Source: an uncultured delta proteobacterium (GTDB taxonomy: Bacteria; Desulfobacterota; Syntrophobacteria; BM002). From it: a stretch of 64,000 bases of DNA. Both the position numbers and the translations under genes were made by a program. The stretch lies in the NCBI GenBank assembly GCA_963712115.1, contig CAVQGX010000019.1, positions 25,293 through 89,292 on the forward strand. The letters are read 5' to 3'. Under the pieces are notes generated by a model. It worked only from the letters and a program-made list of their open reading frames with translations, searched no databases and was not told the DNA's origin. Of this stretch, positions 4,401-20,795 are shown piece after piece (positions within the stretch are counted from its first letter, which is position 1; each line of letters opens with the position of its first letter).

Positions 4401-5621
4401 ATGCAAAGGTTAATTTCCTTACTAGGCATTCCAGGGCTTTTACTCATTGCCTTTATTTTCTCCAAGGACCGACGGAAGCTCCCATACAAAATAATTCTGG
4501 GGGGCATTGGTCTTCAGTTTATCTTTGCCCTTGTGGTTTTGCGCACCCGGATCGGCCATAAGATTTTCTATTGGGTGGGCCGGGGTGCCGAGAAGTTGAT
4601 TGGTTTTACCCAATCGGGCTCCACCTTCGTCTTTGGTGATCTCATGAATGTTGAAAAATTCGGCTTTATCATCGCCTTTCAAGTTTTGCCGGTGATCATC
4701 TTTTTTTCTTCCCTGTCGGCTATCCTTTACCATTTCGGCATTTTGCAGTGGTTGGTGCGACAAATGGCACGTATCTTTACTCGCACATTGGGTGTTTCTG
4801 GGGCAGAGGCCCTCAGTGTTGCAGCCAATGTGTTCGTCGGCATGGTGGAAGCACCCATTCTAGTTAGACCCTATGTAGAAAAAATGACCGAATCGGAACT
4901 CTTCTGTCTAATGAGCGCCGGCATGGCAACCATCGCCGGCAGTGTCATGGCAGCTTACATCGGCATCCTTCAGCCTCACTTTCCGCAAGTGGCAGGTCAT
5001 ATCCTCTCGGCCAGCCTTATGAGTGCACCTGCAGCCGTGGTAATTGCCAAAATCATGATCCCTGAAAGCGAAACTCCCCTCACAGCCGGCAAAGTCCAGA
5101 TTACCTACGAAAAACAGGACGTAAATTTCATTGACGCCGCCGCCCGTGGTGCCATCGACGGAGTACATTTGGCCATCTTTGTTGCTGCCATGCTCATTGC
5201 CTTCATCGCTCTGGTAGCCATGGTCAATGCTTTTTTTGGCTTGTTCGGCACTAGCTTTGAGACCATTTTGGGTTGGCTCTTCGCCCCCATTGCCTTTCTC
5301 ATGGGGATTCCTTGGAAAGAAGCGGTTCAGGTGGGATCATTGCTGGGGCAAAAGACAGTACTGAACGAGTTTGTCGCTTACCTGAACCTGGCCAAGGGAC
5401 TGGCCAGTGGTGAGATTAGCCTGAGTGGACGTTCCCTCACCATAGCAACCTATGCCCTCTGCGGCTTTGCCAATTTCGGCTCCCTCGGCATCATGATAGC
5501 CGGCATAGGGGGTATGGCCCCAAGCAAACGCCATGTTCTGGCAAGACTGGGAATCCTCTCTATTATTTCAGGTTCTTTGGCTGCTTTTCTCACCGCTACC
5601 ATCGCGGGAGTCTTGGTGTAA
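4401..5621 (+). CDS. Concentrative nucleoside transporter (NupC/CNT family)
   Basis: Hydrophobic protein with VLPVIIFFSSL, GMATIAGSV, NEFVAYL, YALCGFANFGS. Confidence 0.93.
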   Translation: MQRLISLLGIPGLLLIAFIFSKDRRKLPYKIILGGIGLQFIFALVVLRTRIGHKIFYWVGRGAEKLIGFTQSGSTFVFGDLMNVEKFGFIIAFQVLPVIIFFSSLSAILYHFGILQWLVRQMARIFTRTLGVSGAEALSVAANVFVGMVEAPILVRPYVEKMTESELFCLMSAGMATIAGSVMAAYIGILQPHFPQVAGHILSASLMSAPAAVVIAKIMIPESETPLTAGKVQITYEKQDVNFIDAAARGAIDGVHLAIFVAAMLIAFIALVAMVNAFFGLFGTSFETILGWLFAPIAFLMGIPWKEAVQVGSLLGQKTVLNEFVAYLNLAKGLASGEISLSGRSLTIATYALCGFANFGSLGIMIAGIGGMAPSKRHVLARLGILSIISGSLAAFLTATIAGVLV

Positions 5622-5817
5622 AAATAATAACGCAAAGCGCAGAGCGCCAAGCGCGAAGCGTTTGCTATTTACCGTTTACTATCATTTTCGCTATGCGCTA
5701 TGCTCTTTGCGTCAACCTTGACCTTTGCTCCCCCATTAAGTATGGGTTAAATTTTCTAGGTCAAATATTCTCTTTACTTGAAATAGCGAAAAAATCGTCC
5801 ATTGAAAAAAACGGATA

Positions 5818-6756
5818 ATGAAACATAACTCAAGCCATTCCATTCAATCTCACCCCGCAAGTCTTCAGGATCTTTTTCAGTCTGGCAACCGCAAGGACTT
5901 TGTCGCCCAAGTGCGAAATGCACTAAACCAGCTACTAGTAAAACTCCATGTGGAAGGTCATTATGATCAGGTCATAACTTTGGTAAAGCGAGAACCCTGC
6001 TATCGCGAATTGAACAACACCTGGGAGGAGATAAAACCCTCGGCTCGCAGCCAAAAGTGGTATGAACTCATGGAACTTCTCATCCAGATAGCTTACTCTA
6101 CCCGGCCATATTGTCTGCGTTGTGGGGAATGCTGCCGGTTAGGAAGTCCTTCCCTGCACCTTGAAGATGTAGATCTTCTGGCCAGGGGGTTGATATCATT
6201 CAGGCAGATATACACCCTCAGGCGAGGCGAACCGGTAAGATTAAATATCGAAGCGAAGCTGAGTACCCTCCCGAGTGAGCTAATCAAGTTCAAAGAAGAT
6301 CAGGAGAAGGGGTATTGCAGGTTCTATTCAGAGAACCAGAATAGCTGTGGTATTTATGAGAACCGGCCACTCCAATGCCGTTTCCAGCAGTGTTGGAACC
6401 CAGAAGCTCTAGAGAAACTTTGGCAAGAACAAAAGCTTACCAGGCGTGACATTTTAGAAAACGATCAAGACCTAATGGAACTGCTGGAACTCCACGATGA
6501 ACGTTGTGATCCCGAAAGACTAAATCATCTTTTCATCCAGTTGCACAATACCCGGGACATGACAGTGCTAGATCAGGTGTTGGAGATGCTCAGACAGGAC
6601 GTGGCCATCAGAAGTCTTGCCACGACAAAACTGAATCGTGATGAGGAAGAGCTGGATTTCCTCTTAGGTAGACCTTTGGCTGAAATTCTGCGCCCTTACG
6701 GTTTCAGGGTGGAAATGGATCAAGATGGAGTCTACCACCTGGTTGAGGTTCGATAA
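5818..6756 (+). CDS. YkgJ/CxxCxxCC-family cysteine-cluster protein
   Basis: CLRCGECC, CRFY, CGIYENRPLQCR pattern. Confidence 0.8.
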   Translation: MKHNSSHSIQSHPASLQDLFQSGNRKDFVAQVRNALNQLLVKLHVEGHYDQVITLVKREPCYRELNNTWEEIKPSARSQKWYELMELLIQIAYSTRPYCLRCGECCRLGSPSLHLEDVDLLARGLISFRQIYTLRRGEPVRLNIEAKLSTLPSELIKFKEDQEKGYCRFYSENQNSCGIYENRPLQCRFQQCWNPEALEKLWQEQKLTRRDILENDQDLMELLELHDERCDPERLNHLFIQLHNTRDMTVLDQVLEMLRQDVAIRSLATTKLNRDEEELDFLLGRPLAEILRPYGFRVEMDQDGVYHLVEVR

Positions 6757-6833
6757 AGTCGGGCCTCCCCCAATCAAACCTCTGACAATTTGCCCCGACT
6801 CAATACCCGTCCCCTATTTTTTCAAGCCCCTAT

Positions 6834-6849
6834 TGGCATATGGCTTGCA
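6834..6849 (+). promoter_or_regulatory. Putative sigma-54 (-24/-12) promoter
   Basis: TGGCATATGGCTTGCA fits GG-N10-GC, about 80 bp upstream of ATG 6928. Confidence 0.6.
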
Positions 6850-6927
6850 TCTTGGCAAATATGGCTTGAAAGGTTATTTCCACTGCAGCAAAAGCTACTG
6901 TTTCAATAACAGGCTCGAGGGACTAGT

Positions 6928-9900
6928 ATGGCATATCAAGATCTACTCTATTTTCTCCAAAATGTGGGCAAGGATCCCTCGCGCCTGATCTTCGAAGACG
7001 AGCTCACTGGTATATATAACCGCCGTTTTCTCCTCAACTATTTCGAATACAAAATCCCCTGGGATTCCTTGGAGAACCACCCGGTGTCGTTGATCATGCT
7101 GGACATAGACTATTTCAAACAAATCAACGACACCCACGGTCATGAGGCCGGAGATCAGGCTCTCATCTGGGTGGCCACCTTGTTGCGGGAGGTAGCTGGT
7201 GAAGCGGGATTGCCCGTCCGTTATGCTGGAGACGAGTTCATCATACTCCTGCCCAAAGCTAAGAAACAGGCTGCTCTGCAAATTGGTGAACGCTTAGTCG
7301 AGCTGGTCCATGAAAAACCAGTTCACCTAGAGGGGACGGAAGATGAATTTTCTCTAACCCTGAGTATTGGCGTAGCCTCAGCACCAGAAGACGCCCAGAC
7401 TGGCAAGGATCTCATCCAGAAAGCAGATACAGCCCTCTATTTTTCCAAAAAAACAGGCCGTGATCGACTCGCCAACGCCAGTTTGGTAACCCCTCATGAG
7501 GTCTCAGACAGAACAGCCCTTTACCACCTTGATAAAGCGACGATTGCCGGCCGACAGGCTCAACTCGCCACCGTGGCTGAGGCCCTAAAGAGATTCAGCG
7601 AAGGCAAAAGTCAGTTTCTCATTGTCGAGGGGGCAGCCGGCCTAGGGAAGAGCGAGTTTTTAGACACAATTCAAAAAAATATCTCGGAAAGCAAAGATTT
7701 GCAGATTAAGGTCAGTGGTGTAGCCCAAGAGCTCTTTCGACCTTACTATTTAACCACCAACATCCTAATTGAAACATTCAACCGGCTACCCGACAAGGGC
7801 ATCAAAATCCTTGAGAGTCTGAATCCTAAAGAAATCTATTACCTTTCCCACATCCTTCCTCAGTTGGGAGAATCCGAAGGCTACAGCAAGGACGGCGAAA
7901 AAGCTCAGCGAGAGGGTCTCTTTACCACCCTCGTACGTTTCATCCCAAAGGTTCTCAATTCCCGTCCTTCCATATTGCTCGTTGACGATCTGCACTTTGC
8001 TGACGAGGCCACCTTGCTCCTTCTGCGCCGGCTGATCCTGGATGGAGGTTTTCCTGTATTTATATGTGCCACTGCAGCAGACACCCGCCATGACAAGTCG
8101 GAGGGAGATCCACCCCCCTTGGAACGCTTTTATGCTTCCTATTGCAAAGATTTGGACATACACAAGGTCAGCCTAACACCGCTTACCGCTGCACACATCG
8201 CCGAACATCTACGAGGAGTTTTCCCTCAGTTAGATTTGCCCAAAAATTTTGAGAACAACATAGCCAAGATCACTCAGGGAAATCCGTTGTTTCTAAACGA
8301 AATCGTGCGCAAGCTGGTAATGGACAGGAAAATTAACCTAGTGGGCAACCAGTGGGTGGTTGAACCTTTGGGAGAAGGTTACCTTCCCGAATCTCTCGAG
8401 CAGATCGTGAGCGAGAAGATCGCCGCTTTAGATGAGGAAAGCAGATCGCTGTTAGATCAAGTTTCCACCTTTGGCGAAAATGTTTCATTGAGTATGCTCT
8501 CAGGAAGCTCTGAAGAAATGGAAGCAAAAGTCCTGGAATTCCTCGACCAGGCAGTGGCCCAAGGCTTAGTGAGCTCTGAATTTCAGATTAATGATGAGAC
8601 AATTCGCTTCCTGAGTAAGAGAGTTTTGGACATCGCCTACGGTGCCATAGAGGAGGAACGCAAACAAGAGTTGCACGAACGTGTGGGTACCTACCAGGAA
8701 GTCCTTTTCGAGCAACATCTCATCCCTTCAGCTGCCACTTTGGCCTATCACTTCAAGCGTTCCACCAATCAGGAAAAGGCCGGGAACTACGAAAAACTGC
8801 AGGCAAGTTCGAACAATAGATTATTCGACGCAGCAGAGGCAGTCTACTACACTGCTGAGAGGTCACCTGAAGCTGCTCCCGATACCAGTCCGCTGGATAA
8901 GAACAGCTTGCCGCTAATTCCCGCCGTGATCCGCTCAATGCTCTTGGTGGTGCGCAACTTGAAGCTCTATCCTCCCGGAAGTAAGGCTATCGTAGCAGCC
9001 AATCGGCAGATGAAGGAGGTAATCGACCAGTTTCTGAAAAAAAATGAGCTTCTCTCGCTCTTTGGTATCAAGAGTGCCTTAATCGTCAATGGCCAGAAAA
9101 TTGATGTGACCGAATACAAGTACTTCGCCGAGTCCTTTTTGAAGCTCCTGAGCCGCTTTGAACTCAAAGGCATAACCTTTAGAAAGGGCCTTACAGAGAA
9201 GGAATTACAAATATTGCTTGAGGCCTTCGGTCGGGTTAAGCACGACATGATTGACCAGCATTTCTGGCAACGCTTTTTAGGGGAGCAGCGGATTGTCAAT
9301 ATTGAGATGACTCAGGTTCGCTATACGGTGATCACTGATTCGACCAGCCAAGCACACACCGCTCAACTTGTTGCCGGTGAGGATGGTTTATCTGCGGTAG
9401 AGATCGCTGCCCAACTGGAAGATGCCGAACAGGGCATGGATGAGCACGACATCAGGGAACTACCCGAGATCATACGCACCCTGCTTAATGCGGCGAGAAG
9501 TATAAAACTCTACCCACTGAAAAGCAAAGCTATCGCAGCTGCCTTAGAGCTGCTGCAGCAATCCCTCAAGAGTATCTTGGACAGAAAACCAGCTCTTACC
9601 CTGGCGCGGGTTGGGGACTCTCTTCTGGTCAACGGGGAAAAGATCGACATTTCAGAGTTTGAAACACTGGCTCAGGCCTTTCTCAAATTCCTTGACTCCC
9701 TTTCCCTAACTAGTCTCACCTTTCTGGCCACCGTCTCTTCCGATGAACTGCAAGCATTTGTTGGCTCCCTCGGGCAGCTTCCTACCTCTGAGTTGGATGG
9801 CAACTATTGGGCAAATTTAGCAAAAGAGAAGGGACTGAGGGGTATTCTCTTCGACCTGCGTCTCTATGAAGCACGAGTCTCAGCTGCTAGGATGACTCCC

Positions 9901-11208
9901 GTTGAGACCCGCCAAGTCAAGGTCAAAGCCCAACCAGTAAAGACGGTGCAAAAGGAAGCTCCAGAACCAGCAGAAACTCTTGATGATCTCGCAGCAAAAA
10001 TGGTGGTGCGGGTAAGCGATCTTTTGCTGAAGGGGGACGAAGCAAAACTCAAAGAGATTATAAAACGTCTTCTCCAGGAATACTTGCAAGGTCCATTACA
10101 GACCCGCCAAAAGATAGTAAAGCGTCTAAAGGGTATGCTGGAAGGTCTTAACTTGGGCCTGCAGAATCAGCTGGCAAAAATAATGGCAGGTCTGCTCCTC
10201 CTAGTTTTCTCCAGAGAAGATGATCCCATACTTCTCAGAGAGCTAGCAAACCTTCTTCACCAACTCAACACAACCCTGCTTCAATTTGGAGAGTACCCTG
10301 CTGCCAGCCAGATTCTCCTGCATCTCCATCGCCGGCACCAGGAGCTTGTCGAGGCGCGAAGTGAGCAGGCTCAATTACTGGGGAAAATACTCCTCAGGCC
10401 CCTGGAACCAAAAGCACAACAGCTAATCCTCGAGGACTTTCGCTCCGGCGACCCAGCGCGGCGGCAGAATGCGGCACAACTGCTGGGGAGCACGCGCCAA
10501 GCCGCCTTCCCCTTGCTCATAAAGCTCATCAAGAGCGAAGAGGAATTCAGAGTTCGGCAAATGGCCGCCTCTCTCCTCGCAGAGTACGGACCTCAAGCGG
10601 CAAAATTGCTGAAACGTGAATTGGCACTCCGGACCAACCCAGACGAAAAGGTTCGTATCCTCGAAATCCTCGACAGTGTCACCCGCGACCTTAGAACGGA
10701 GCTTGCTTATGCCCTTACTGATGACAGTGACCAGGTACGCCAGGCGGCTCTTCAGCTTGCCGAAAGATTGAACGACGATCAGGCGGGCAAGCTCCTTTTA
10801 GAACAAACTGAGAATGGAAACGTAAATGTGGCAATTGCTGCAATTACATTTTTGGGGAAACTCAAACCGCCTACTGCCCATGAAAAGCTTGTTTCCATAT
10901 TGCAAACAGCCAAGAATGAAAAACTGGTTGTGGCCTGCTGTCAATCTTTGGGACTGATCGGGGATTCAGCCAGCATTGACCCCCTGGCAAAACTCCTGGC
11001 CTCAAAAGGCTTGTTTCGCCGTAACCGACAAAGTGCTGAAGTCCGCGCCACTGCTGCCTTGGCCTTATCACAAATCGATCATCCCAGGGTTGTTCAGATC
11101 CTCAGCAGCTACACTGACGATAACGACCCCCGGGTAAGGCAAATAGCCAGCTCTCTCAAACTACCTCCAAGTACTCATCCTAATAGCAAACTTGCTGCCG
11201 CCAAGTGA
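6928..11208 (+). CDS. GGDEF domain - STAND-type P-loop ATPase - two LYP(P) helical domains - HEAT repeats, paralog 1 (1426 aa)
   Basis: DELTGIYNRR, DIDYFKQINDTHGHEAGD, RYAGDEF; Walker A GAAGLGKS; Walker B LLVDDLHFAD; TQGNPLF; LAYHF; NLKLYPPGS and SIKLYPLKS repeats; C-terminal HEAT-like repeats. Confidence 0.88.
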   Translation: MAYQDLLYFLQNVGKDPSRLIFEDELTGIYNRRFLLNYFEYKIPWDSLENHPVSLIMLDIDYFKQINDTHGHEAGDQALIWVATLLREVAGEAGLPVRYAGDEFIILLPKAKKQAALQIGERLVELVHEKPVHLEGTEDEFSLTLSIGVASAPEDAQTGKDLIQKADTALYFSKKTGRDRLANASLVTPHEVSDRTALYHLDKATIAGRQAQLATVAEALKRFSEGKSQFLIVEGAAGLGKSEFLDTIQKNISESKDLQIKVSGVAQELFRPYYLTTNILIETFNRLPDKGIKILESLNPKEIYYLSHILPQLGESEGYSKDGEKAQREGLFTTLVRFIPKVLNSRPSILLVDDLHFADEATLLLLRRLILDGGFPVFICATAADTRHDKSEGDPPPLERFYASYCKDLDIHKVSLTPLTAAHIAEHLRGVFPQLDLPKNFENNIAKITQGNPLFLNEIVRKLVMDRKINLVGNQWVVEPLGEGYLPESLEQIVSEKIAALDEESRSLLDQVSTFGENVSLSMLSGSSEEMEAKVLEFLDQAVAQGLVSSEFQINDETIRFLSKRVLDIAYGAIEEERKQELHERVGTYQEVLFEQHLIPSAATLAYHFKRSTNQEKAGNYEKLQASSNNRLFDAAEAVYYTAERSPEAAPDTSPLDKNSLPLIPAVIRSMLLVVRNLKLYPPGSKAIVAANRQMKEVIDQFLKKNELLSLFGIKSALIVNGQKIDVTEYKYFAESFLKLLSRFELKGITFRKGLTEKELQILLEAFGRVKHDMIDQHFWQRFLGEQRIVNIEMTQVRYTVITDSTSQAHTAQLVAGEDGLSAVEIAAQLEDAEQGMDEHDIRELPEIIRTLLNAARSIKLYPLKSKAIAAALELLQQSLKSILDRKPALTLARVGDSLLVNGEKIDISEFETLAQAFLKFLDSLSLTSLTFLATVSSDELQAFVGSLGQLPTSELDGNYWANLAKEKGLRGILFDLRLYEARVSAARMTPVETRQVKVKAQPVKTVQKEAPEPAETLDDLAAKMVVRVSDLLLKGDEAKLKEIIKRLLQEYLQGPLQTRQKIVKRLKGMLEGLNLGLQNQLAKIMAGLLLLVFSREDDPILLRELANLLHQLNTTLLQFGEYPAASQILLHLHRRHQELVEARSEQAQLLGKILLRPLEPKAQQLILEDFRSGDPARRQNAAQLLGSTRQAAFPLLIKLIKSEEEFRVRQMAASLLAEYGPQAAKLLKRELALRTNPDEKVRILEILDSVTRDLRTELAYALTDDSDQVRQAALQLAERLNDDQAGKLLLEQTENGNVNVAIAAITFLGKLKPPTAHEKLVSILQTAKNEKLVVACCQSLGLIGDSASIDPLAKLLASKGLFRRNRQSAEVRATAALALSQIDHPRVVQILSSYTDDNDPRVRQIASSLKLPPSTHPNSKLAAAK

Positions 11209-11326
11209 GGAATTCAGGTGCGGAGACTTTGGATTTAAGGTTCCAGGGGGGCTTCAAAGGTCTTTCCTTCTCACGGGCATCCGCGGATGTGGATTAGTGG
11301 AGAATCTTGATGGTGACTGTTAGGTA

Positions 11327-11355
11327 TTGAAAACCGAGCGATCTCACTGTATCAT
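11327..11355 (+). promoter_or_regulatory. Putative sigma-70 promoter
   Basis: TTGAAA-17 bp-TATCAT upstream of ATG 11472. Confidence 0.5.
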
Positions 11356-11471
11356 AGTCAAAGAAAAACCTTGTTTAGGAGAGCTTCACCCTCTGAAGTC
11401 CCTCGACCCGCCACTGCTTTTTCACCTTGCTCTCCTAGCCTACACATAGCGGGTCTTGATCCGACCTTAGT

Positions 11472-14400
11472 ATGGAATACAAAGATCTTCTTCATTTTCT
11501 TCAGCATGTCGGCACAGATCCTTCGCGTTTGATCTTCGAAGACGAACTCACCGGTATCTATAACCGCCGTTTCCTCCTTAATTACTTCCGCTACAAGGTA
11601 CCCTGGGATTCCTTGGAAAACCGGCCCCTGTCTTTGCTCATGATGGACCTGGACCGTTTCAAGGAGATTAACGACAACTATGGTCATGAAGCTGGAGACC
11701 AAGTTCTGATCTGGGTGGCCAGTCTTATCAAAGAGGTATCAGGTGATCAGGGGTTAGCCATCCGCTACGCGGGCGATGAGTTCATTATTCTCATGCCCAA
11801 TGGTGCCAAAGAGGCGGCCCTGAAAGTTGCCGAACAGCTCCTCCAAAGGCTTCACCAAGAGGTCGTCCGCTTGCCGGAAGTGGATGAGGAGCTACGTATT
11901 ACACTCAGTATAGGTGTTGCTTCAGCCCCAGATGATGCCTACACAGGCAAGGCTCTCATTCAGAAAGCAGATACTGCTCTTTACTATGCAAAAAAGACAG
12001 GGCGTGATCGGTTCGCCAACGCCAAGGAAATAGCCCCTGAGGAAGTTTTTACTAAGACTGCTCTATATCAATTAGATAAAGCAAGAATCGCCGGCCGCAA
12101 GAACCAACTGACTAAAGTGGCCGAAGCCTTGAGAAAATTCAGCAAACGGGAAAGCCAGTTCCTCATCGTTGAGGGGGCAAGCGGCATGGGTAAAAGTGAA
12201 TTTATCCAAACAATCCGCAGGAACCTGGCCCAAACCAAGATCTGGCAAATCGCTGTTAACGGAGTTCCCCAGGAAGGTTTTCGCCCCTATTATCTGACAA
12301 CCAACATTCTGGTCGAGATAATGAATCATAGACCAGATAAGGGTGCCGGCATCTTGGATCACCTAAGCCCGCAGGAAGTAAACTACCTTTCTCACATATT
12401 ACCCCAATTGGGAGAGCCTGAAGAGGAGGCGGACCAAAAAGATGAAAAAACTCAGCGCGAAATCATCTTTACCACCCTTGTCCATTTTATCCCCAAGCTG
12501 ATCAACTCACGACCTTTAATCTTCTTTATTGATGATTTGCACCTGAGCGACGAGGCTACTCTCCTGCTACTAAGAAAGTTGCTTTTGCGTAATGATGTTC
12601 CCCTTTTCATCTTGGGAACTGCCATGGATATTCTCCCGGGTAAGGGGGAAGGACAACAGACGCCACTGCAACGTTTCCTTACCGCACATCAGCAGGAACT
12701 TATTATTGACACCGTGCCCCTTACCCCGCTGACAGCCTCTGACATTGGCGCCCACTTTCGGGGGATTTTTCCACAAGTGAGCTTGCCTGAAGATTTTGAA
12801 GGGAGCCTAGTGCAGATCACCCAAGGCAACCCTCTTTTTCTCAGCGAGATCCAGCGTAAGCTTGTCCTAGAGGGGAAACTTACCCTCACTGGGCAACAAT
12901 GGATGGTAGAGCCCCTAGAGGAGGGTTATCTACCTAAGTCTTTGGAAGAGATCGTCAGCCAGAAGATCGTGGCCTTGGACAAGGAGAGCAAGGAGCTACT
13001 CGATCAGGCCTCCACCTTTGGCGAGAATGTTTCCCTAAGCGTGCTTACTGGCAGTTCTGAGAATAGGGAGACGCAGGTGCTTGAATTCGTCGATCAAGCG
13101 GTAGCTCAGGGTCTTATCAGCACCGATTACCAGATGAACGACGATACCATCCGGTTCCTCGGTAAGCGTGTTTTAGAGATCACTTACGGTGCCATTGATG
13201 AAGATCGGAAACGGGAATTACATGAGCGGATAGGTGACTACCAGGAGACCCTTTATGAACAAAAACTTTTGCCCTCAGCTGCGACCCTTGCCTACCATTT
13301 CCAGCTCTCGGCGAACCATGAGAAGGCCCGTCTCTATCTAGAGTCTCAACAAACCCACAACAATAAAATCTTCAACCCAGAAGAGGCGGTCAACTATACA
13401 GGAGAAAAGTTAGAGGATACCGTTCCGGAGGACACTCCCCTAGATTCCACCAGCCTTTCGGAGATCCCTGGGGTCATTCGTGTGCTCCTCACCACCATAC
13501 GCAACATCAAGCTCTACCCTCCTGGAAGCAAGGCCATCGTCACTTCAACCCAGCAGTTGCAAGAAGCGATCGACAAGATCTTGAATGACAACCAGCGGCT
13601 AAACATCACGGTCGTAGAAAATGATCTGGTAGTAAACGGCGAAACTCTGGATATTGGAGAGTTCAAATCAATAGCCCAAGCGTTTATGAAATTCCTCAAT
13701 CAGGTGGAACTGAGAGGCATAGCCTTATCTCAAGGCCTAGCTGGGCATGAATTAAGGGCAATGGTAGAAGGACTTGGCAGAATTAGTAAAAAGATGATTG
13801 ATCGACGCTTCTGGAAACGATTTGCGGCGGAGCAGCGTCTATATCACATAGACATGAAGCAGGTGCGCTACACTACCATGGCGGGACCGGATGGAGCCTT
13901 AGAAGATCCTGGAGAGCCCAACCCGAGAGCAGAGGTGCTCCCAGGTATGATGCCTCCCAAATTCTCGGTGTTGACCAGCCATTAGATGATCGAGATTTGA
14001 ATCAGATTCCAGATGTACTTAGGTGTCTCCTCACTGCCACCAGTAACATTAAACTCTACCCCCCGGAAAGCACTGCCATCAGGTATTCAATCGAGCAGCT
14101 CTATCAAGCCTTAAAAGCCTTTCTTGCCAACCGTCCTGCCCTTACCCTGGCGCGGGTAGGTGAGTCCTTGCTGGTAAACGGCCAAAGAATAGACACCGCT
14201 GACTTCAAAACCATGGCCGATGGTTTTTTGAGATTCCTGGAGTCTGTAAACCTCAGGAGCTTGAGCTTTCTGAGAGATACTTCTGTTCGTGAGTTGGTAG
14301 CTTTCATTAGTGCTGCCGTTCAAAGCACTGCTGACGGTTTTGACACTTTTTTCTGGCGGCGACTTGCCAGAGAACAACAGTTATTCGGCATCCTTTTTGA

Positions 14401-15781
14401 CCAGCGTTTGTACGGAATTTTAGGGGAACGGGTTGGCATTGGTGTGGATCAGCTGGAAAAGGCGGAGGAACTCCCTGAAGGGGATGGTCTGGGACCCGAG
14501 CAGGTTGTTCCAACCGTTTCAGGGATACCACCAACGGTTGAGCCCGTGCAAGAGTCAGTTGCTTCAGAGCCCAGTGAGGTTCAACTCACCGACCGTTCTA
14601 TCGATGCAATGGCAGAAAAGCTGGGCGATTTTCTCCTAAAGGGTGATGAGAGGCAAGCCCTCCAGATAATTAATCAGCTTTTCCATGACTTCGTCGGCCA
14701 GGGGGATTTGATTCGCACCAAGGTGGTCAATTTTTGCGAAAACTTCCTCGAAGATCCAGTATACGGTTCTCAACCGATTTTGGTGGAGTTTTTGATTGAT
14801 CCCCTTCTTCGCGTTTTCCCTCAGGAAGAAGATCTTGGAATTTTGAGACAAATGGCCACACTGCTCTCTCAAACTGCCGCTAATCTAATTCAGTTTGGAG
14901 ATTACCAGATGGCCAGCCGGATTCTGACGCATCTGCGCAATCGTCAGAATCAGTTGCAGGCAGGTAGGGACACAAAAGCCCTAGCGGATGAGACAATTCT
15001 GCTCAGAGAACTTGATCCAAAAACCCAGATGATTCTTTTGGAAGATTTGCGATCAAAAGACCCCGCCAGGCTCCAGAGGGTTACCCAACTTCTGAGCAGC
15101 TTGGGAGCAGTAGCCATGCCCCTGCTCGTAGAGGTGGTAAAAGGTGAAGAAAGCCTCAGGCTGAGACAGATTGCCTCATATCTGCTGAAATCATTGGGGC
15201 CTGAAGGGGCCAGACTCCTTAAACGAGAACTGGTACTTGAGGGCTTTCCCAAGGAAAGGGTGCGAATTTTGGAGGTGATCGACGGCGTAACCCAAGACTT
15301 GAAAACCGAACTCGCTTACACTTTGGGTGATGACAATCCGAAGGTGAGGCGAGCGGCATTTCGCCTCACGGAGCGTTTGAATGATGCGCAAGTAACTTCT
15401 TTGCTATTTGATTATGCCAACCACGAAGATCCAAAGATGGCCGTAATTGCCATCAAGTCCTTAGGAAAAGTCAAACCTGCAGGAGCAGTGGACGTTCTGC
15501 TTTCGTTACTTGAGTCCTCCAAAGAAGTTGAACGTTTGATCGCTTGCTGTCGGGCCCTCGGACAAATTGCCGATCCAGCAGCTATCGAACCGCTGGCCAA
15601 AATGTTGTCTCCAGGAAGTATTTTGTTTCTCCGAAAAAGAAGGAGTTCTGCAATCCGCGCCGCCGCTGCTTTCGCTCTGGCGCAGATACCTCATGCTAGG
15701 GTCTCCGAAGTACTAGCCCCTTACGCAGATGATCGGGATCTGAGGGTTCGACAAATTGCCAGATCACGGATTGCTGAGTAG
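11472..15781 (+). pseudogene. GGDEF-STAND ATPase-HEAT paralog 2, split by a frameshift near 13900-13950 (pseudogene or sequencing error)
   Basis: ORFs 11472-13985 and 13997-15781 are in different frames but together colinear with paralog 1. The second frame is open upstream of 13997 and reads YDASQILGVDQPLDDRDLNQIPDVLRCLL, aligning to IAAQLEDAEQGMDEHDIRELPEIIRTLL of paralog 1. Confidence 0.85.
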
Positions 15782-15811
15782 AAAGTTAGGAGTCGGTAGG
15801 CAAAGAGCAGA

Positions 15812-16021
15812 GAGCAGGTTGAATATCAAATTCGAAATCCTAAGCACGAAATTCGAAACAAATCCGAATTACCAAAATCTAAATGACCCAAACGAGAAAG
15901 ATCAAATCTATACTAATAGTTCTTGTTTTGAACATTGGAGAATTCGAAATTTGAATTTGTTTAGTCCGCCTCCGGCGGATCGATATTCGGATTTCGGATT
16001 TATCTGCTAGCTCCATGCCCT
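15812..16021. repeat. Imperfect palindromic heptamer-repeat element, copy B
   Basis: Near-identical to 1572-1768, with an extra TCCGCCTCCGGCGGA hairpin at 15965-15979. Confidence 0.85.
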
Positions 16022-16028
16022 ATGCCAC

Positions 16029-16220
16029 TAGCCCGGATGTTTCATGAATTGCTGTCGCGAGACCGTGAAGATGGGCGTGCCACCGGGCAATCCCGCGGTA
16101 CCGCGGTATTGGACCCGAGGCGTACCTGAACGGTACGTCGCAGGGTACAACACTCGAGGACGCCCGGAAGGACGGCCATATCCGCGGTCGCAGCAGGTGA
16201 TTCATGGAACATCCGGGCTA
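16029..16220 (+). mobile_element. MITE-like element family A, copy 1 (192 bp)
   Basis: TIR TAGCCCGGATGTTTCATGAAT / ATTCATGGAACATCCGGGCTA. Homologous to 16911-17102 and 59810-60004. Confidence 0.85.
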
Positions 16221-16865
16221 TTATTCCCTTAGTTTATTAAGGACATGGAATAAGCGCCAGAGTGCTGTTAGGTTGGTTCCTACGGCGAGAAAAATTACGG
16301 TTACGATCAGTGCTGCATCCTGCCCGAATAAGGCCGCTTCGTTGGCCCGGGCAGTGAAGTTTATCAAGGAATTAACCATACCGGCAACGCCAATGGCAAT
16401 GATTCTCTCCCCCCGCTGAAAAAGCCCAACAAAACAAGAGACCATTAGTCCTTCAGCTCGTGCCTTAGTGTAACTCACCATAACCGAGCCAAAAAGGACG
16501 AGGAAAACGGTAATTGTTATAAGGGGCGTGGCATGACCTTTACGCAGGAAGTATGCCCAAATACCAAGGAGGATAAAAAACTCGCCATAGCGATCAAGGA
16601 CTGAATCTAGAAAGGCACCCCGCTTTTTAACCTGGTTTAGCTCTCGGGCTAGGGCTCCATCTAGAGTATCCAGTAAGCCACTAATCAAAGTTAGCAACCC
16701 GCCCCAGAAGGGACTAAAGACAAAAGAAATGCCTGCACCCAAGCCGCAAAGCAGGCTAAAAATACTGACATGGTTGGCCTTCAGTCGGAGAAACACACAA
16801 CAAGGAACCAGGTATCTGCCCAAAAAACGGTAGAAGGCAGCTTCAAGCACGCTTCCCTTGAGCAT
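16221..16865 (-). CDS. CDP-alcohol phosphatidyltransferase family protein
   Basis: DTLDGALAR...GAFLDSVLDRYGE signature; SYTKARAE, RGERI. Confidence 0.9.
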   Translation of the reverse strand: MLKGSVLEAAFYRFLGRYLVPCCVFLRLKANHVSIFSLLCGLGAGISFVFSPFWGGLLTLISGLLDTLDGALARELNQVKKRGAFLDSVLDRYGEFFILLGIWAYFLRKGHATPLITITVFLVLFGSVMVSYTKARAEGLMVSCFVGLFQRGERIIAIGVAGMVNSLINFTARANEAALFGQDAALIVTVIFLAVGTNLTALWRLFHVLNKLRE

Positions 16866-16910
16866 TGCAAGTCACCTCCCTAAGAAAAATCTAATCTCTC
16901 CACTGTTTTC

Positions 16911-17102
16911 TAGCCCGGATATTTCATGAATTGGCGTCGGGAGACCGTGAAGATGGACGTGCCACCGGGCAATCCCGCGGTACCGCGGGATTGGATCCGA
17001 GGCGTACCTGAGTGGTACGTCGCAGGGTCCGACACCCGAGGACGCCCGGAAGGACAGCCATATCCGCGGTCGCAGCAGGCGATTCATGAAATATCCGGGC
17101 TA
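16911..17102 (+). mobile_element. MITE-like element family A, copy 2 (192 bp)
   Basis: Perfect 21-bp TIR TAGCCCGGATATTTCATGAAT; CTAG at both ends. Confidence 0.85.
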
Positions 17103-17251
17103 GGCGGATAGCAGATGAGCGCCAGCATGATTTGGCTGATGAGCAGAACAGTCGGTGACTTCTACTGGAAAAGTTTCCAATCGAACGAATCGCACTAGCG
17201 TATATCTTCCATAAGAATAGCAAAACTTGCTCCATTGTCGAGCGGATTCTT

Positions 17252-17280
17252 TTGACAAAGGGTTGCTCTTTAGTTATGCT
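17252..17280 (+). promoter_or_regulatory. Putative sigma-70 promoter of the fdhD operon
   Basis: TTGACA-17 bp-TATGCT. Confidence 0.6.
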
Positions 17281-17363
17281 AATTTTGTCCTAACGTACCA
17301 GTATTCTTCTGCGAAGTTCCTTTTATGGGTTGCCCAATGTTTTTTTAGCATCCCCTGGAGAAA

Positions 17364-18164
17364 ATGTTGTCAGTAGATCCGAGTAACCTCGCAAAAGACG
17401 TAGAGGTTTTGCGCATTACCAAGGACCGTTGCCGTCACACCCGGGTTTCTGTGGTGCGTGAAATCCCCCTTACCATATTTCTCAACGACCGGGAAATTAT
17501 CACCCTTCTTTGCACAGGATCTCATATTGAAAGCTTAGCTGTTGGCTTTCTCAAGTCAGAGGGTCTGTTGCAACATCGAAGCAATCTCCAAAACGTGGAG
17601 ACGGACCCGAATGGCCAAACAGTTCGAGTCTTCACAAAAGAGCCTACAGCAATGGCTGAGCAGCTTTTCGGCAAGCGAACTCTTACCTCTGGTTGCGGAA
17701 AAGGTACCATCTTTTACAACGTGCTAGACTCCTTGCAAAGCCAGCCACTTGAAAATCAGGTCACTATTAAGGTTGACCAGATCCGCAAACTCATGACTGA
17801 GCTCCACAAACGGTCAGAACTTTATCGCCTCTCTCGAGGAGTTCATAACTGCGGCCTTGCAACTACAAAAAAAATTGTGATCTTTCGCGCTGACATCGGT
17901 CGTCACAATGCCGTAGATATGATACTAGGAGAGTGTTTTCTTAAAGAAGTTGACACCAGTGATAAGATTCTCATAACCACGGGCCGTATTACCTCCGAAA
18001 TCCTAATAAAAGCTGCTAAGATGAAAATCCCCATGCTGATTTCCCGCTCGGCGGCCACTAGTCTGTCCCTTGACCTCGCTCATAACCTAAACATGACCGT
18101 CATCGGCTATGTGCGTGGGGGCAGCATTCTTGCCTATGCTGGAGGAGAAAACCTTATCTGCTGA
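17364..18164 (+). CDS. fdhD: Formate dehydrogenase accessory sulfurtransferase FdhD
   Basis: EIPLTIFLN, LAVGFLKSEG, TSGCG, DIGRHNAVD, TGRITSE. Confidence 0.93.
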   Translation: MLSVDPSNLAKDVEVLRITKDRCRHTRVSVVREIPLTIFLNDREIITLLCTGSHIESLAVGFLKSEGLLQHRSNLQNVETDPNGQTVRVFTKEPTAMAEQLFGKRTLTSGCGKGTIFYNVLDSLQSQPLENQVTIKVDQIRKLMTELHKRSELYRLSRGVHNCGLATTKKIVIFRADIGRHNAVDMILGECFLKEVDTSDKILITTGRITSEILIKAAKMKIPMLISRSAATSLSLDLAHNLNMTVIGYVRGGSILAYAGGENLIC

Positions 18165-18167
18165 CCT

Positions 18168-19316
18168 ATGATCTATCTGGACAACGCAGCCACATCCTTT
18201 CCCAAGCCAAAGCGTGTAATAGATGCAGTTACGCGGTATTTGAACGAAATCGGGGGTAACCCCGGACGGGCCGCCCACGCTCTAGCTCGAGAGGCCAGTG
18301 GTTTAATTGATCGCACTCGACGATTGCTCGCCAGTCTGCTTGGCAATGTGGACCCTAGCCGCATCATATTTACCCCAAGTACAACTGTCGCTCTGAACTT
18401 GGCTATCAAAGGGTTGCTCAAATCGGGTGATCACGTGCTTACCACCAGCATGGAGCACAACTCGGTATTGAGGCCTCTAAATGGATTGGCAAAGCTAGAT
18501 GTGACCCACAGCCTGATTCCCTGCAGCAACAGCGGGGAACTGGACCCGGCAGACATCCTACCTCTCATCCAACCCCATACTCGACTGATTGCCTTAGTTC
18601 ATGCCTCAAATGTTACCGGTAGTTTGATGCCTGTTGCCGAGGTAGGGAAAATAGCTCGAGAGCGAGGTATCATGCTGCTGGTTGATGCGGCTCAAACCAT
18701 GGGCAAGATAGCAATTGATCCGGAAAAACTACTTGTCGACTTGCTTGCTGGCCCCGGTCACAAGGGTTTGCTGGGGCCCATGGGTACGGGCTTCCTCTAC
18801 GTAAAACCAGGTCTTGAGTTGGAACCATTGTGGGAAGGCGGCACTGGCACTCACTCTGAATCACTCAAACAGCCGAAAACTTGGCCAGATCGGTTTGAGA
18901 GCGGCACCTGCAATGCACCTGGTCTCGCTGGTCTAGCCGAGGGCATAGCCGAGGTTCAACAGTTGGGTTTTGAAGCCATCGCTGCCCATGAGCGGCGGCT
19001 GGCTGAGATTCTTCTGGACGGCTTGAGTCAGTTTCCTGGGATAACCCTTTACGGACCCAAGGATCGGCGCTTTTGCACTGGCACCCTTGCCTTCAATGTC
19101 CAAGAATTGGATTGCGCAGAAGTTGCCCACATTTTGGACACAGCTTATTCAATTGCGGTACGTTCCGGACTCCACTGTGCTCCAGCGGCACATCGAACCA
19201 TAGGCACTTTCCCTCAGGGCGCCGTTCGCGTCAGTGTAAGCCCTTACAATAGGGAAGAGGAAATTCATACCTTTCTTGAGGCTGTCTCTGAAATAGTAGG
19301 TTTCCGCCGCAGATGA
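18168..19316 (+). CDS. Cysteine desulfurase family (class V aminotransferase, PLP)
   Basis: MIYLDNAATSFPKP, EHNSV, VDAAQ, GHKGLLGP, RSGLHCAP. Confidence 0.93.
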   Translation: MIYLDNAATSFPKPKRVIDAVTRYLNEIGGNPGRAAHALAREASGLIDRTRRLLASLLGNVDPSRIIFTPSTTVALNLAIKGLLKSGDHVLTTSMEHNSVLRPLNGLAKLDVTHSLIPCSNSGELDPADILPLIQPHTRLIALVHASNVTGSLMPVAEVGKIARERGIMLLVDAAQTMGKIAIDPEKLLVDLLAGPGHKGLLGPMGTGFLYVKPGLELEPLWEGGTGTHSESLKQPKTWPDRFESGTCNAPGLAGLAEGIAEVQQLGFEAIAAHERRLAEILLDGLSQFPGITLYGPKDRRFCTGTLAFNVQELDCAEVAHILDTAYSIAVRSGLHCAPAAHRTIGTFPQGAVRVSVSPYNREEEIHTFLEAVSEIVGFRRR

Positions 19317-19391
19317 GATTGTCAGTAGGCAGTGGAAATGGAGTTTTGTAGTAGCGGCTTTTGCCGTAATACTAAACGGAGGGAAAAGCAT

Positions 19392-20051
19392 ATGCCTGCA
19401 GTGCTGTCCATTGTCGGAAAGTCGAAGGTGGGAAAAACCACCTTTCTGGAAAAATTGATACCTGAGATAAAAGGCCGAGGTTACCGCATTGGTACTTTAA
19501 AGCATGATGCCCATGATCATTTTGAAATTGACCATCAAGGTAAGGACACCTGGAGACACCGTGAAGCTGGGGCTCAGACGGTTGCCATTAGCTCTCCTTC
19601 ACGTTTTGCCCTGACCAAGGCCATGCAAAGGGAGCTGGACATAGATACAATCATCGCTGCTTATTTCTCGGACGAAGACTTGGTATTAACCGAGGGCTAT
19701 AAAAGCGGCAACCAAGCCAAGATCGAGATCTGCCGAAAGGAGTTGCAAGCAGAGCCTCTCTGCAGCAAAGAAGATCGTCTACTTGCAGTGGTAAGTGATT
19801 TTTCAGTGTCGGTGGATGTCCCCCACTTTGAATTGGAAGATATATCGGGGGTAGCTGGCTTCATTGAAGACCGTTTTTTGAAAAAGAAAACAGAACCCAG
19901 AGTGGTGTTGAGGCTGAATGGCAAAAAAATGCCCATGAAGTCTTTCGTACAAGAATTTGTCATGGGCGGTATTATGGGCATGATTTCAACACTTAGGGGT
20001 TTCGAAAATCCCAGCCGAGTTGATATATCCATCCGGCTGAAAAAAAGCTAA
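19392..20051 (+). CDS. mobB: Molybdopterin-guanine dinucleotide biosynthesis protein B
   Basis: GKSKVGKTT, LKHDAH, GKDTWRH, EGYK. ATG at 19392. Confidence 0.9.
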   Translation: MPAVLSIVGKSKVGKTTFLEKLIPEIKGRGYRIGTLKHDAHDHFEIDHQGKDTWRHREAGAQTVAISSPSRFALTKAMQRELDIDTIIAAYFSDEDLVLTEGYKSGNQAKIEICRKELQAEPLCSKEDRLLAVVSDFSVSVDVPHFELEDISGVAGFIEDRFLKKKTEPRVVLRLNGKKMPMKSFVQEFVMGGIMGMISTLRGFENPSRVDISIRLKKS

Positions 20052-20174
20052 CGGCCTGATGCTGAAAATTGATTCTGATTGTCTTTCCACGCCTTTGGTT
20101 TTTTCGCTCTGCGCTATGCGCCATGCGCTCAGCGTTATTGTTTTGGCAACAACCCGTTGACAATTGAGGATGGG

Positions 20175-20795
20175 GTGGCTGAAATAGTTGGCGTAGTCTT
20201 GGTAGGAGGCAAAAGTCGCCGTTATGGCCGGAATAAAGCACTGGAGGTTTTCCAGGGTGAGCGGCTGATTGACCGGCAGCTAAGGAAAGTACAGGCTCTG
20301 TTCCAGGAGGTATTAGTTATTACCAACGAACCTGGTGATTATCTTCATCTAGAGGTAACCATACTCCGAGATGTAATTCCTGGACTGGGGCCCCTGGGAG
20401 GTATTTACACAGGGCTTCTTTTCGCCCAGGGCAAAAGTGTGTTCATCACCGCCTGCGACATGCCCTTTTTGCAGCCGGCTGTCGTCAAACACATGATGCA
20501 ATTGTCCAGGAACAACGATGTGGTCGTTCCCGAGAAGAAGGAAGGATTGGAGCCGCTCCACGCCATCTATTCAGCCCGCTGTCTGCCGCACATCAAGAAA
20601 ATGCTGGATCGAGGGAAGTTTCAGGTTGTTAGCTTTTTCCCGGCAGTCAAGGTATGTCGGTTGAGCCAGGAAGAGCTTGAAAAGCTTGATCCTTATGGAC
20701 TGTCCTTCTTTAACATTAACACCCCCGACGATATGAATAGAGCCAGGGAGCTGCTGGAAGAATTAGGGGAGAGCCCTGAGTTAGACACGGGGTGA
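20175..20795 (+). CDS. mobA: Molybdenum cofactor guanylyltransferase
   Basis: LVGGKSRRYG, GPLGGIYTGL, ACDMPF, EPLHAIY, FFNINTPDD. GTG 20175 follows GAGG. Confidence 0.9.
   Translation: MAEIVGVVLVGGKSRRYGRNKALEVFQGERLIDRQLRKVQALFQEVLVITNEPGDYLHLEVTILRDVIPGLGPLGGIYTGLLFAQGKSVFITACDMPFLQPAVVKHMMQLSRNNDVVVPEKKEGLEPLHAIYSARCLPHIKKMLDRGKFQVVSFFPAVKVCRLSQEELEKLDPYGLSFFNINTPDDMNRARELLEELGESPELDTG

Follow-up and report, generated by a model that had tools for sequence, protein, structure and literature searches.

GGDEF-type diguanylate cyclases are active as dimers only, and many of them, though not all, carry an allosteric RxxD inhibitory site (I-site). To our knowledge, dimerization of GGDEF domains is controlled by N-terminal sensor, receiver or coiled-coil domains, and we know of no GGDEF enzyme that is activated by assembly into a multi-subunit ring or filament through a STAND NTPase. 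A cyclase of another type is joined to a STAND module in the TOMM kinase/cyclase fusion proteins (TIGR03903), which carry an N-terminal Ser/Thr kinase and a class III cyclase, itself in need of dimerization, in front of a STAND module of AAA_16 type and a TPR sensor of helical repeats; the Mycobacterium tuberculosis proteins Rv0386, Rv1358 and Rv2488c are presumably of the same class III cyclase–AAA_16 STAND–TPR build. Further STAND systems to be compared are MalT, Apaf-1/CED-4, the plant NRC NB-ARC and the archaeal TPR-STAND 6mfv, the outputs of the MalT/Apaf-1 type being DNA binding, caspase recruitment and cell death, as well as the Avs and bacterial NACHT proteins, with their effector–NOD–sensor order and toxic effectors.

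The locus described here, situated in a window of 64,000 nucleotides (the whole stretch of DNA that was analyzed), comprises two adjacent genes, A and B, whose products have, like TIGR03903, a dimerization-dependent cyclase that precedes a STAND module of AAA_16 type and a sensor built of helical repeats. They differ from it in that the cyclase is a GGDEF domain and the sensor consists of two copies of a domain named here KLYP plus HEAT repeats; the N-terminal kinase of TIGR03903 recurs in two relatives of A and B, P0224 and P0237. The similarity covers the STAND part only, with residues 190–642 of gene A aligning to TIGR03903 positions 464–914 (E 4.7e-24), and the whole-protein scores of 84.3 bits for A and 65.9 bits for B lie far under the cut-off of 705.75, so that A is not a member of that family. 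To MalT, Apaf-1/CED-4, NRC NB-ARC and 6mfv the identity amounts to 12–18%, the sensor type differs, and the output of A and B is a second-messenger synthase. With PleD, WspR, DgcZ and VCA0965, A and B have all GGDEF catalytic residues in common, but unlike in canonical cyclases the GGDEF domain of A and B lies at the very start of the protein and has no RxxD I-site; the mere 20 or so residues in front of it leave no room for an N-terminal sensor or a coiled-coil stalk, and regulation must, as read from the sequence, be exerted by the STAND and sensor parts that follow. The effector–NOD–sensor order is that of the Avs and bacterial NACHT proteins, whereas the defense-island context of the latter is absent, inheritance is housekeeping-like, and the effector is a signaling and not a toxic one.

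The earlier note, made from the same DNA, had not recognized this architecture as characterized. A literature search found neither GGDEF-STAND-HEAT proteins nor KLYP-HEAT/HD-GYP pairs, although such proteins may appear in supplementary architecture tables accompanying PMC7159879 or the HD-GYP survey. Three papers considered in the search (PMC10154355, PMC13725321 and 10.1101/2023.11.21.568195) are, in the portions available, unrelated to GGDEF-STAND-HEAT or KLYP. The features of the locus are as follows.

6928..11208, + strand: gene A (1426 aa) with GGDEF, STAND NTPase, two KLYP domains and HEAT, from the ORF, its translation and Pfam
6997..7473, + strand: GGDEF domain of gene A (residues 24–182), with AGDEF active site and without RxxD I-site
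7483..8823, + strand: predicted STAND module of gene A (residues 186–632), with NBD, helical domain and winged helix, then helices
8911..9327, + strand: KLYP domain 1 of gene A (residues 662–800), from the internal repeat, the AF2 model and profile A4
9463..9879, + strand: KLYP domain 2 of gene A (residues 846–984), from the internal repeat, the AF2 model and profile A4
9988..11157, + strand: C-terminal HEAT-repeat region of gene A (residues ~1021–1410), from Pfam and PDB profile
11209..11471, no strand: A–B intergenic spacer of 263 nt
11472..13985, + strand: first frame of gene B (837 aa), with GGDEF, STAND module and KLYP1 (13437–13904)
13802..15781, + strand: second frame of gene B, open from 13802, with KLYP2 (13940–14416) and HEAT repeats
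13914..13915, + strand: frameshift site of gene B, one base short in the window, from blastn against an intact ortholog

The open reading frame of gene A at 6928–11208 is real, and its translation contains all the motifs that had been named for it (RYAGDEF at 98–104, FKQINDTHGHEAGD, GAAGLGKS, ILLVDDLH, GNPLF, LAYHF and KLYPPGSK/KLYPLKSK); its relatives are full-length and colinear, with ~1400–1450 aa. The C-terminus matches HEAT_2 (E 4.7e-27), HEAT and HEAT_PBS in Pfam and leads to alphaRep HEAT proteins in a PDB profile search. The description of the locus as two adjacent paralogs stands as far as the shared domain plan is concerned, but the second paralog is present in the window as two frames and not as one ORF, the second frame counting 594 aa from the TTG at 13997. 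Relatives have a single ORF of ~1440 aa, and alignment (blastn) with an intact 1444-aa ortholog (L022:12545–16879) shows one base to be absent after 13914, within the linker that joins the two KLYP domains and is poorly conserved. Contigs from four of four other public runs (X1, X2, X4 and X15) carry one more base at this point, either T or C, with the X4 contig being additionally one base short at 13883, which gives a net frame like that of the window; the frameshift probably reflects an error of assembly or variation between strains. The A–B spacer holds one promoter-like site (11327–11355), such sites being rarer there than in shuffles, and promoter- and terminator-like sites around the two genes show no excess over shuffled sequence. 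An Rfam/riboswitch search of positions 5500–17500 gave one sub-threshold chance hit, with no Rfam match in the spacer.

The GGDEF domain of gene A is matched by Pfam over residues 24–180 (E 2.9e-43), with PF00990 scores of 147.9 bits for A and 142.9 bits for B (cut-off 23.8) and TIGR00254 scores of 153.4 and 157.1 bits, respectively (cut-off 37.4). It aligns without gaps to PleD (1w25), in which we take D327, K332, N335, D344, R366, E370, E371, K442 and R446 to be the metal-, guanine- and phosphate-binding residues; their equivalents in gene A are D59, K64, N67, D76, R98, D102, E103, K174 and R178, and these positions, together with G101 and F104, are kept in 62–63 of 63 relatives. The absence of an RxxD site, claimed previously, is borne out, with the aligned I-site position reading GEAG in A and GDQG in B and RxxD occurring in none of the 63 relatives (searched over the 16 residues preceding the signature). 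On these grounds the GGDEF domain of A and B is predicted to be a catalytically competent diguanylate cyclase.

The following module is predicted, from its modeled structure, to adopt a STAND fold. Gene A shows the NBD, helical domain and winged helix organization of STAND proteins, as well as their overall layout, with the effector (GGDEF) N-terminal and the sensor (two KLYP domains and HEAT) C-terminal. AAA_16 is matched in Pfam with 51.6 bits in A (residues 207–370) and 64.3 bits in B (cut-off 32.6), and the motifs GAAGLGKS, ILLVDD and GNPLF correspond to Walker A, Walker B and the GxP motif. Among the 63 relatives, the Walker A lysine is present in 62, D353 in all and D or E at position 354 in all; H583 and H608 are invariant, and no cyclase or NTPase motif is missing from either paralog. 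In the model the module takes up the closed form that regulated STANDs typically show, and its fold matches (Foldseek) include Avs3 (8dgc) and plant and animal NLRs. A complex prediction with two copies of residues 1–465 and ATP (score 0.00, mark 0.42) weighs neither way.

The KLYP domain had been taken for a helical one, a view corrected by the AF2 model of the tandem (pLDDT 88.8, pTM 0.80), in which each unit starts with a pair of long helices and continues as an alpha/beta part (element order a-a-b-b-a-b-a-a-b-b). The two units form an internal repeat (unit 2 of A versus unit 1 of B, 32% identity, E 7e-27), and the KLYP1 and KLYP2 sets cross-score at 104–118 bits, compared with 36–75 bits against the KLYP sets of HD-GYP or HEAT type; an origin of the giant proteins by fusion of a KLYP-HD-GYP with a KLYP-HEAT gene was rejected, as KLYP1 and KLYP2 are closest to each other. 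No fold match was obtained in the PDB, the query being the two-domain model, whose first helical hairpin dominated the searches, and PDB sequence profile searches with the KLYP profiles A2 and A4 returned chance-level matches only. In the ESM Atlas, residues 655–985 met unnamed clusters only (0.88–0.90). Neither KLYP in A or B nor 35 KLYP-HD-GYP proteins matched DUF3391, DUF3369 or GAF in Pfam at E<=0.001, and KLYP is not among the named N-terminal domains of HD-GYP proteins (REC, GAF, DUF3391, DUF3369 and MASE9-11) in the available portion of the preprint by Galperin and Chou (10.1101/2021.11.05.467447).

Beyond A and B, the host genome has no KLYP genes (A2 at E<=0.01, A4 at E<=1e-3). Across the phylum, 124 of 301 genomes contain matches to profile A4. 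A word-based search with A2 among proteins of 171–594 aa, too insensitive a method, gave 3 fragments only, and it was from the profile search of the genomes that relatives of HD-GYP and HEAT type emerged. HD_5 (HD-GYP type) is present in 35 of 35 KLYP proteins below 500 aa and HEAT_2 in 47 of 49 of those with 500–1000 aa; many HD-GYP proteins of 370–495 aa have an N-terminal domain homologous to the KLYP of A and B. Pfam assigns no N-terminal family to these proteins, and solved HD-GYP structures match them in the catalytic domain alone (PDB profile search). KLYP is a module of c-di-GMP signaling that reaches beyond the giant proteins and also heads HD-GYP phosphodiesterases and HEAT proteins. 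An adjacent same-strand KLYP pair was seen in 31 of the 55 fetched loci having a KLYP ORF, a count that is inflated, as about half of the regions in part of the set had been chosen for two nearby matches; 56 regions were fetched in all. KLYP-HEAT proteins are found paired with HD-GYP enzymes, one of them with cNMP_binding and PilZ domains. Because KLYP-HD-GYP and KLYP-HEAT genes are often side by side, the KLYP domains probably work pairwise, as a unit for coupling or sensing that links a HEAT sensor with a c-di-GMP enzyme; with the fold lacking a PDB match, this role is drawn solely from gene and domain associations.

In one search, which scored 7999 proteins, at least 863 belonged to the family at E<=1e-3, and colinear relatives of ~1400 aa are encoded in 334 of 599 matched stretches of species genomes from several phyla, with full-length ones in MAGs labeled Desulfobacterota-type, Nitrospirota, Acidobacteriota, Gemmatimonadota and Rokubacteria. 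There is usually one copy per lineage, and the family tree largely follows the phyla. A and B arose by duplication within Desulfobacterota, B being the ancestral type.

In the model that we consider probable, A and B are cytoplasmic one-component signaling proteins, in which a diguanylate cyclase is placed under a MalT/Apaf-1-type STAND switch and a KLYP/HEAT sensor and is activated by sensor-triggered oligomerization. At rest, the NTPase module would be closed and the GGDEF domains kept apart. Recognition of a ligand or partner protein by the KLYP/HEAT region would lead to nucleotide exchange and NTP-dependent oligomerization, which would bring the GGDEF domains into a two-fold arrangement, allowing two GTP to be condensed into c-di-GMP. 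Since the I-site is absent, the output would not limit itself and would behave like a switch.

A different role, unlikely in our estimate, is that of a local-signaling scaffold, with a constitutive or weakly regulated cyclase, the STAND, KLYP and HEAT parts mainly tethering it to a partner machine where c-di-GMP is made locally, and the NTPase serving for assembly or as a timer rather than as a switch triggered by a ligand. HEAT repeats typically act as scaffolds for protein binding, and the pairing of KLYP-HEAT proteins with HD-GYP enzymes would suit such a role; however, no partner gene conserved across phyla occurs in the window or in the clustered loci of 63 distinct family proteins, and the retained Walker A, Walker B and GxP motifs and two invariant histidines are what a working nucleotide switch would be expected to show, with the closed form of the module again that of a regulated STAND. 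The sole recurring neighbor is a CxxCxxCC gene directly upstream, in 9 loci of the same bacterial family. The proposal, made in the earlier note, of a sensor/helper pair would have A and B form hetero-oligomers, with one partner as sensor and the other as amplifier, like the paired NLRs of plants. At least 10 of 17 genomes of the genus retain the tandem, the copies fall into two sister clades of the tree, both of which persist, and their C-terminal regions indeed differ most, as had been noticed (60% identity over residues 1–803 versus 44% over A residues 842–1409, and 31% in HEAT_N). This gradient is, however, equally steep between orthologs of different phyla and is thus a property of the whole family, not the mark of a pair; most members occur as single copies, among them those of a one-contig genome from the same genus (G013) and of the sister genus (G018), which have the B type only, and every catalytic and NTPase residue is kept in both copies, so that neither looks specialized as a helper. 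As single copies are usual, no gene neighbor is conserved across phyla and defense context is absent, a sensor/helper division finds no support, and we hold it to be improbable.

The immune flavor of the comparison with NLRs has likewise not been sustained. An anti-phage or conflict NLR of the Avs/bNACHT kind, with GGDEF as its effector, would be in line with the shared effector–NOD–repeat logic, with Avs3 and plant and animal NLRs among the fold matches, and with GGDEF being listed as a rare effector domain of vWA-MoxR NTPase conflict systems in the available part of PMC7159879. The neighbors, however, are housekeeping genes (UvrD, RecG, a nucleoside transporter and molybdenum-cofactor genes) and form no defense island; PADLOC-DB 2.0 gave HEAT-ARM_XIII (E 1.3e-6) and P-loop-level matches at E 0.0015 or weaker; and the colinear, phylum-tracking family is conserved even in the sensor, unlike fast-diversifying immune sensors. 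The family looks like ordinary signaling rather than phage defense, which leaves the immune reading very improbable. We give equally little credence to a GGDEF domain that is a non-catalytic nucleotide-binding or receptor domain in a protein doing something other than c-di-GMP synthesis. The first glycine of the signature is replaced by alanine in A, B and 42 of the 63 relatives, and the AGDEF domain of NbdA is termed degenerate by its authors in the accessible part of 10.64898/2026.03.20.713172. The AGDEF enzyme VCA0965 of Vibrio cholerae nevertheless makes c-di-GMP, according to the available text of PMC3974145; 19 of the 63 relatives have the canonical GGDEF within the same architecture (the remaining two have SGDEF and AGDNF); and the near-complete conservation of the PleD-aligned binding positions argues for catalysis.

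The model of a STAND-switched cyclase may be part of a wider, more tentative reading, to which we would give about one chance in four, in which KLYP is an undescribed pairing and sensor domain that defines a c-di-GMP toolkit of uncultured Desulfobacterota and other phyla. KLYP-HEAT input would be wired to breakdown in the gene pairs and, in A and B, via an NLR-like NTPase to synthesis, the STAND module assembling an apoptosome-like GGDEF ring or filament for an all-or-none burst without feedback. Within that reading, KLYP might itself bind c-di-GMP or GTP, replacing the missing I-site, and A and B might co-assemble, integrating two inputs. KLYP ties the family of A and B, which spans several phyla known almost solely from metagenomes, to HD-GYP phosphodiesterases and HEAT proteins, and it offers a testable handle on c-di-GMP enzymes with N-terminal domains that are termed undefined in the field itself. 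If true, STAND-induced oligomerization of GGDEF domains would be a new control principle in c-di-GMP signaling, and bacterial NLR logic would here be serving ordinary signaling instead of cell death.

The pair and its flanks comprise the following features of the window:

5818-6756, forward strand: CxxCxxCC protein (PF03692, putative Zn/Fe-chelating), 312 aa, directly upstream of gene A
6928-11208, forward strand: gene A, 1426 aa
11472-13985, forward strand: gene B, first reading frame, 837 aa
13997-15781, forward strand: gene B, second reading frame, 594 aa
17364-20795: molybdenum-cofactor and formate-dehydrogenase maturation cluster (FdhD, class-V aminotransferase, MobB, MobA-like), downstream of the pair

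The translation of gene A contains all the motifs that the earlier note had listed for the two adjacent paralogs. Pfam places a GGDEF domain at residues 24-180 (E 2.9e-43), AAA_16 at residues 207-370 (51.6 bits, cut-off 32.6) and HEAT_2, HEAT and HEAT_PBS repeats at the C-terminus, and finds no named family between residues ~650 and ~1000, the region of the two units (KLYP1 and KLYP2) of a domain called here after its KLYP motif. As the two frames of gene B match successive parts of gene A (residues 1-803 with 60% identity to the 837-aa frame, residues 842-1409 with 44% identity to the 594-aa frame), the second paralog is indeed present, but it is split over two reading frames.

The second of these frames is open already from 13802, and nucleotide alignment with the ortholog of L022, a chromosome-level MAG and the closest complete relative, in which this gene is a single 1444-aa ORF, shows one base to be missing from the window after 13914, in the poorly conserved linker between KLYP1 and KLYP2 (mean column conservation 0.28). 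Contigs with near-identical DNA from four public runs (a metatranscriptome and three DNA runs), which represent related populations and not necessarily the source sample, all have one more base (T or C) than the window behind 13914, and the B-type copies listed within the genus have open frames of ~1437-1470 aa, so that an assembly error or strain variation is the likeliest cause of the break; the window's genome comprises 70 contigs, with 94.4% completeness and 5.99% contamination. A real pseudogene is possible as well, and in the contig of run X4 an additional base is missing at 13883, which returns the net frame to that of the window. Single-base indels in the linker (13883-13985) thus vary among near-identical environmental populations, and this segment may be especially prone to assembly errors or to real frame changes. 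Contigs of the metatranscriptome run X15 cover 13763-14219 of gene B with 90-99% likeness, a weak hint at transcription of gene B, or of the gene of a close relative, in sediments or soils, with DNA carry-over as another possible source.

The family numbers at least 863 proteins at E≤1e-3 (7999 scored); among the best 120, all but one have 1370-1474 aa and those with a name are called only “diguanylate cyclase”. When each species was represented by a single genome, relatives were encoded by 334 of 599 stretches that matched the pattern; the best 80 of these, colinear over ~1400 residues where the contig permits, belong to MAGs or single cells with the labels Deltaproteobacteria, Syntrophobacterales, Desulfobacterales, Nitrospirota, Acidobacteriota (including Aminicenantes and Vicinamibacteria), Gemmatimonadota and Rokubacteria. 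The gene occurs in 16 of 17 genomes of the window's genus and 19 of 21 of its family, and in none of 19 genomes from five other families of the class (E≤1e-40). In a FastTree phylogeny, Gemmatimonadota and Nitrospirota form one clade each, Acidobacteriota appear in three places, and the clade of A-type copies is sister to that of the B-type copies (support 98). Since the sister genus (L028) and a one-contig genome of the same genus (G013) each have a single, B-like copy, gene A is the derived duplicate. In three ORFs of ~1290-1350 aa (L070:4485-8351, L089:8007-11900 and L071:3841-7902, from two Acidobacteriota-labelled MAGs and one “uncultured bacterium” MAG), the alignment to gene A ends at about residue 820-850, and the C-terminal region seems to be a different one.

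The two copies had been proposed to form a sensor/helper pair because their C-termini looked the more diverged. Identity between A and B does fall from the N- to the C-terminal part (GGDEF 67%, STAND 62%, KLYP 47-49%, HEAT_N 31%, HEAT_C 52%), but the same gradient separates A from single-copy orthologs of other phyla, as in a Nitrospirota relative (66, 56, 49-52, 34 and 56%, respectively). With the gradient being family-wide and all catalytic residues kept in both copies, no helper-type specialization is seen, and the proposal is not upheld; hetero-oligomers of A and B are possible, though not indicated.

The pair's neighbours encode UvrD- and RecG-type helicases, a nucleoside transporter, the CxxCxxCC protein, a CDP-alcohol phosphatidyltransferase, FdhD, a class-V aminotransferase, MobB and MobA. 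Neighbour-ORF clustering found the CxxCxxCC gene directly upstream in nine loci of the same bacterial family and not in other phyla, and no partner gene common across phyla among the clustered ORFs of all loci, synteny being confined to the bacterial family. The cofactor cluster at 17364-20795 is syntenic in the closest relatives. PADLOC returned only a HEAT-ARM match (E 1.3e-6) and P-loop noise; the surroundings are not a defence island.

The GGDEF domain of gene A aligns without a gap to PleD (1w25). Among 63 distinct, aligned full-length relatives, the positions that we take to be equivalent to the metal-, guanine- and phosphate-binding residues of PleD are kept in 62-63, and D76, at the position separating c-di-GMP makers from Hypr cGAMP makers, is Asp in all 63, for which reason c-di-GMP is the expected product. 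The active-site signature reads AGDEF in 42, GGDEF in 19, and SGDEF and AGDNF in one each; the RxxD inhibitory site (I-site) is absent from all 63, as noted earlier for the pair itself. An excerpt of PMC3974145 describes an AGDEF enzyme that makes c-di-GMP. The domain lies at the extreme N-terminus, preceded only by a strongly conserved leader of ~20 residues, so that the protein lacks the sensor or stalk usually found there.

In the STAND module, the Walker A Lys is kept in 62 of the same 63 relatives, and D353 of Walker B, Asp or Glu at 354, the Gly of the GxP-like motif GNPLF, and His 583 and His 608 in all of them. The best Foldseek matches of an AF2 model of residues 186-650 (63-row alignment, pLDDT 87.6) are CED-4, Apaf-1, Cdc6/Orc1, a TPR-bearing STAND protein, MalT, Avs3 and NRC2, entries that presumably represent resting or inhibited states, which gives the model the look of a closed STAND. 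In sequence, this region comes closest, among named families, to the STAND region of the cyclase-fused family TIGR03903 (E 4.7e-24), although genes A and B score far under its membership cut-off. The kinase/cyclase/STAND fusions of that family are paralleled by some relatives of genes A and B, P0224 (2140 aa) and P0237 (1762 aa), in which a Ser/Thr kinase stands N-terminal to the GGDEF-STAND-KLYP-HEAT core.

KLYP1 and KLYP2 are homologous (32% identity, E 7e-27). The domain had been described as helical; in the AF2 model of residues 655-985 (60 rows, pLDDT 88.8, pTM 0.80), each unit instead consists of two long helices followed by an alpha/beta part (b-b-a-b-a-a-b-b), and the two units, to judge by the high pTM, probably pack against each other. 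Solved structures gave no match to this two-domain model past the helical hairpin. Searched with a profile, 1.84 billion representatives yielded 2242 matches (E≤1e-3), and almost all of the best 150 share this architecture or are fragments of it. A one-unit profile (A4, 70 rows) had matches (E≤1e-3) in 124 of the 301 genomes searched from the phylum, most of them close to the N-terminus of proteins of 370-920 aa. Complete KLYP ORFs, 86 in total, were present in 55 of 56 such regions examined: all 35 below 500 aa carry HD_5/HD of the HD-GYP type, with HD, HHE and GYP motifs in their alignment, and 47 of 49 with 500-1000 aa carry HEAT_2, single ones adding cNMP_binding and PilZ, or PAS and histidine-kinase domains. 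The 918-aa protein at L118:2920-5676 (KLYP, HEAT, cyclic-nucleotide-binding and PilZ) connects a c-di-GMP receptor domain with the KLYP-HEAT module as well.

A conserved two-gene module of Desulfobacterota consists of a KLYP-HEAT gene (~510-875 aa) directly followed on the same strand by a KLYP-HD-GYP phosphodiesterase gene (~370-495 aa), stop and start often overlapping (L117:2418-5751, L107:1059-4038, L114:1050-4338 and 28 further loci); its share, 31 of 55 loci, is an overestimate, since two nearby KLYP matches had been the reason for choosing about half of the regions in two of the three sets. Solved HD-GYP proteins match the KLYP-HD-GYP proteins only over the catalytic domain, and an excerpt of an HD-GYP architecture survey names REC, GAF, DUF3391, DUF3369 and membrane domains (10.1101/2021.11.05.467447). 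An origin of the KLYP tandem by fusion of such a gene pair was rejected, as cross-scoring makes KLYP1 and KLYP2 each other's closest relatives, which points to internal duplication. KLYP domains thus tend to occur two per unit, beside HEAT repeats and c-di-GMP enzymes.

In an excerpt of PMC7159879, GGDEF appears only among the rare effectors of vWA-MoxR systems. Second-messenger cyclases under a STAND switch and GGDEF enzymes with a cytoplasmic sensor are kinds already known; the literature search found no description of the GGDEF-STAND-KLYP-HEAT combination, nor of the KLYP domain and its HD-GYP/HEAT gene pairs, which supplementary files may list. GGDEF domains must dimerize to be active, and STAND modules oligomerize upon sensor engagement and nucleotide exchange, which makes proximity-induced activation of the cyclase by the STAND switch the most economical reading. 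The two KLYP units and the HEAT repeats would then be the input, whose engagement, with nucleotide exchange, would drive oligomerization and bring the GGDEF domains into proximity, and lack of the I-site would lead to a switch-like output.
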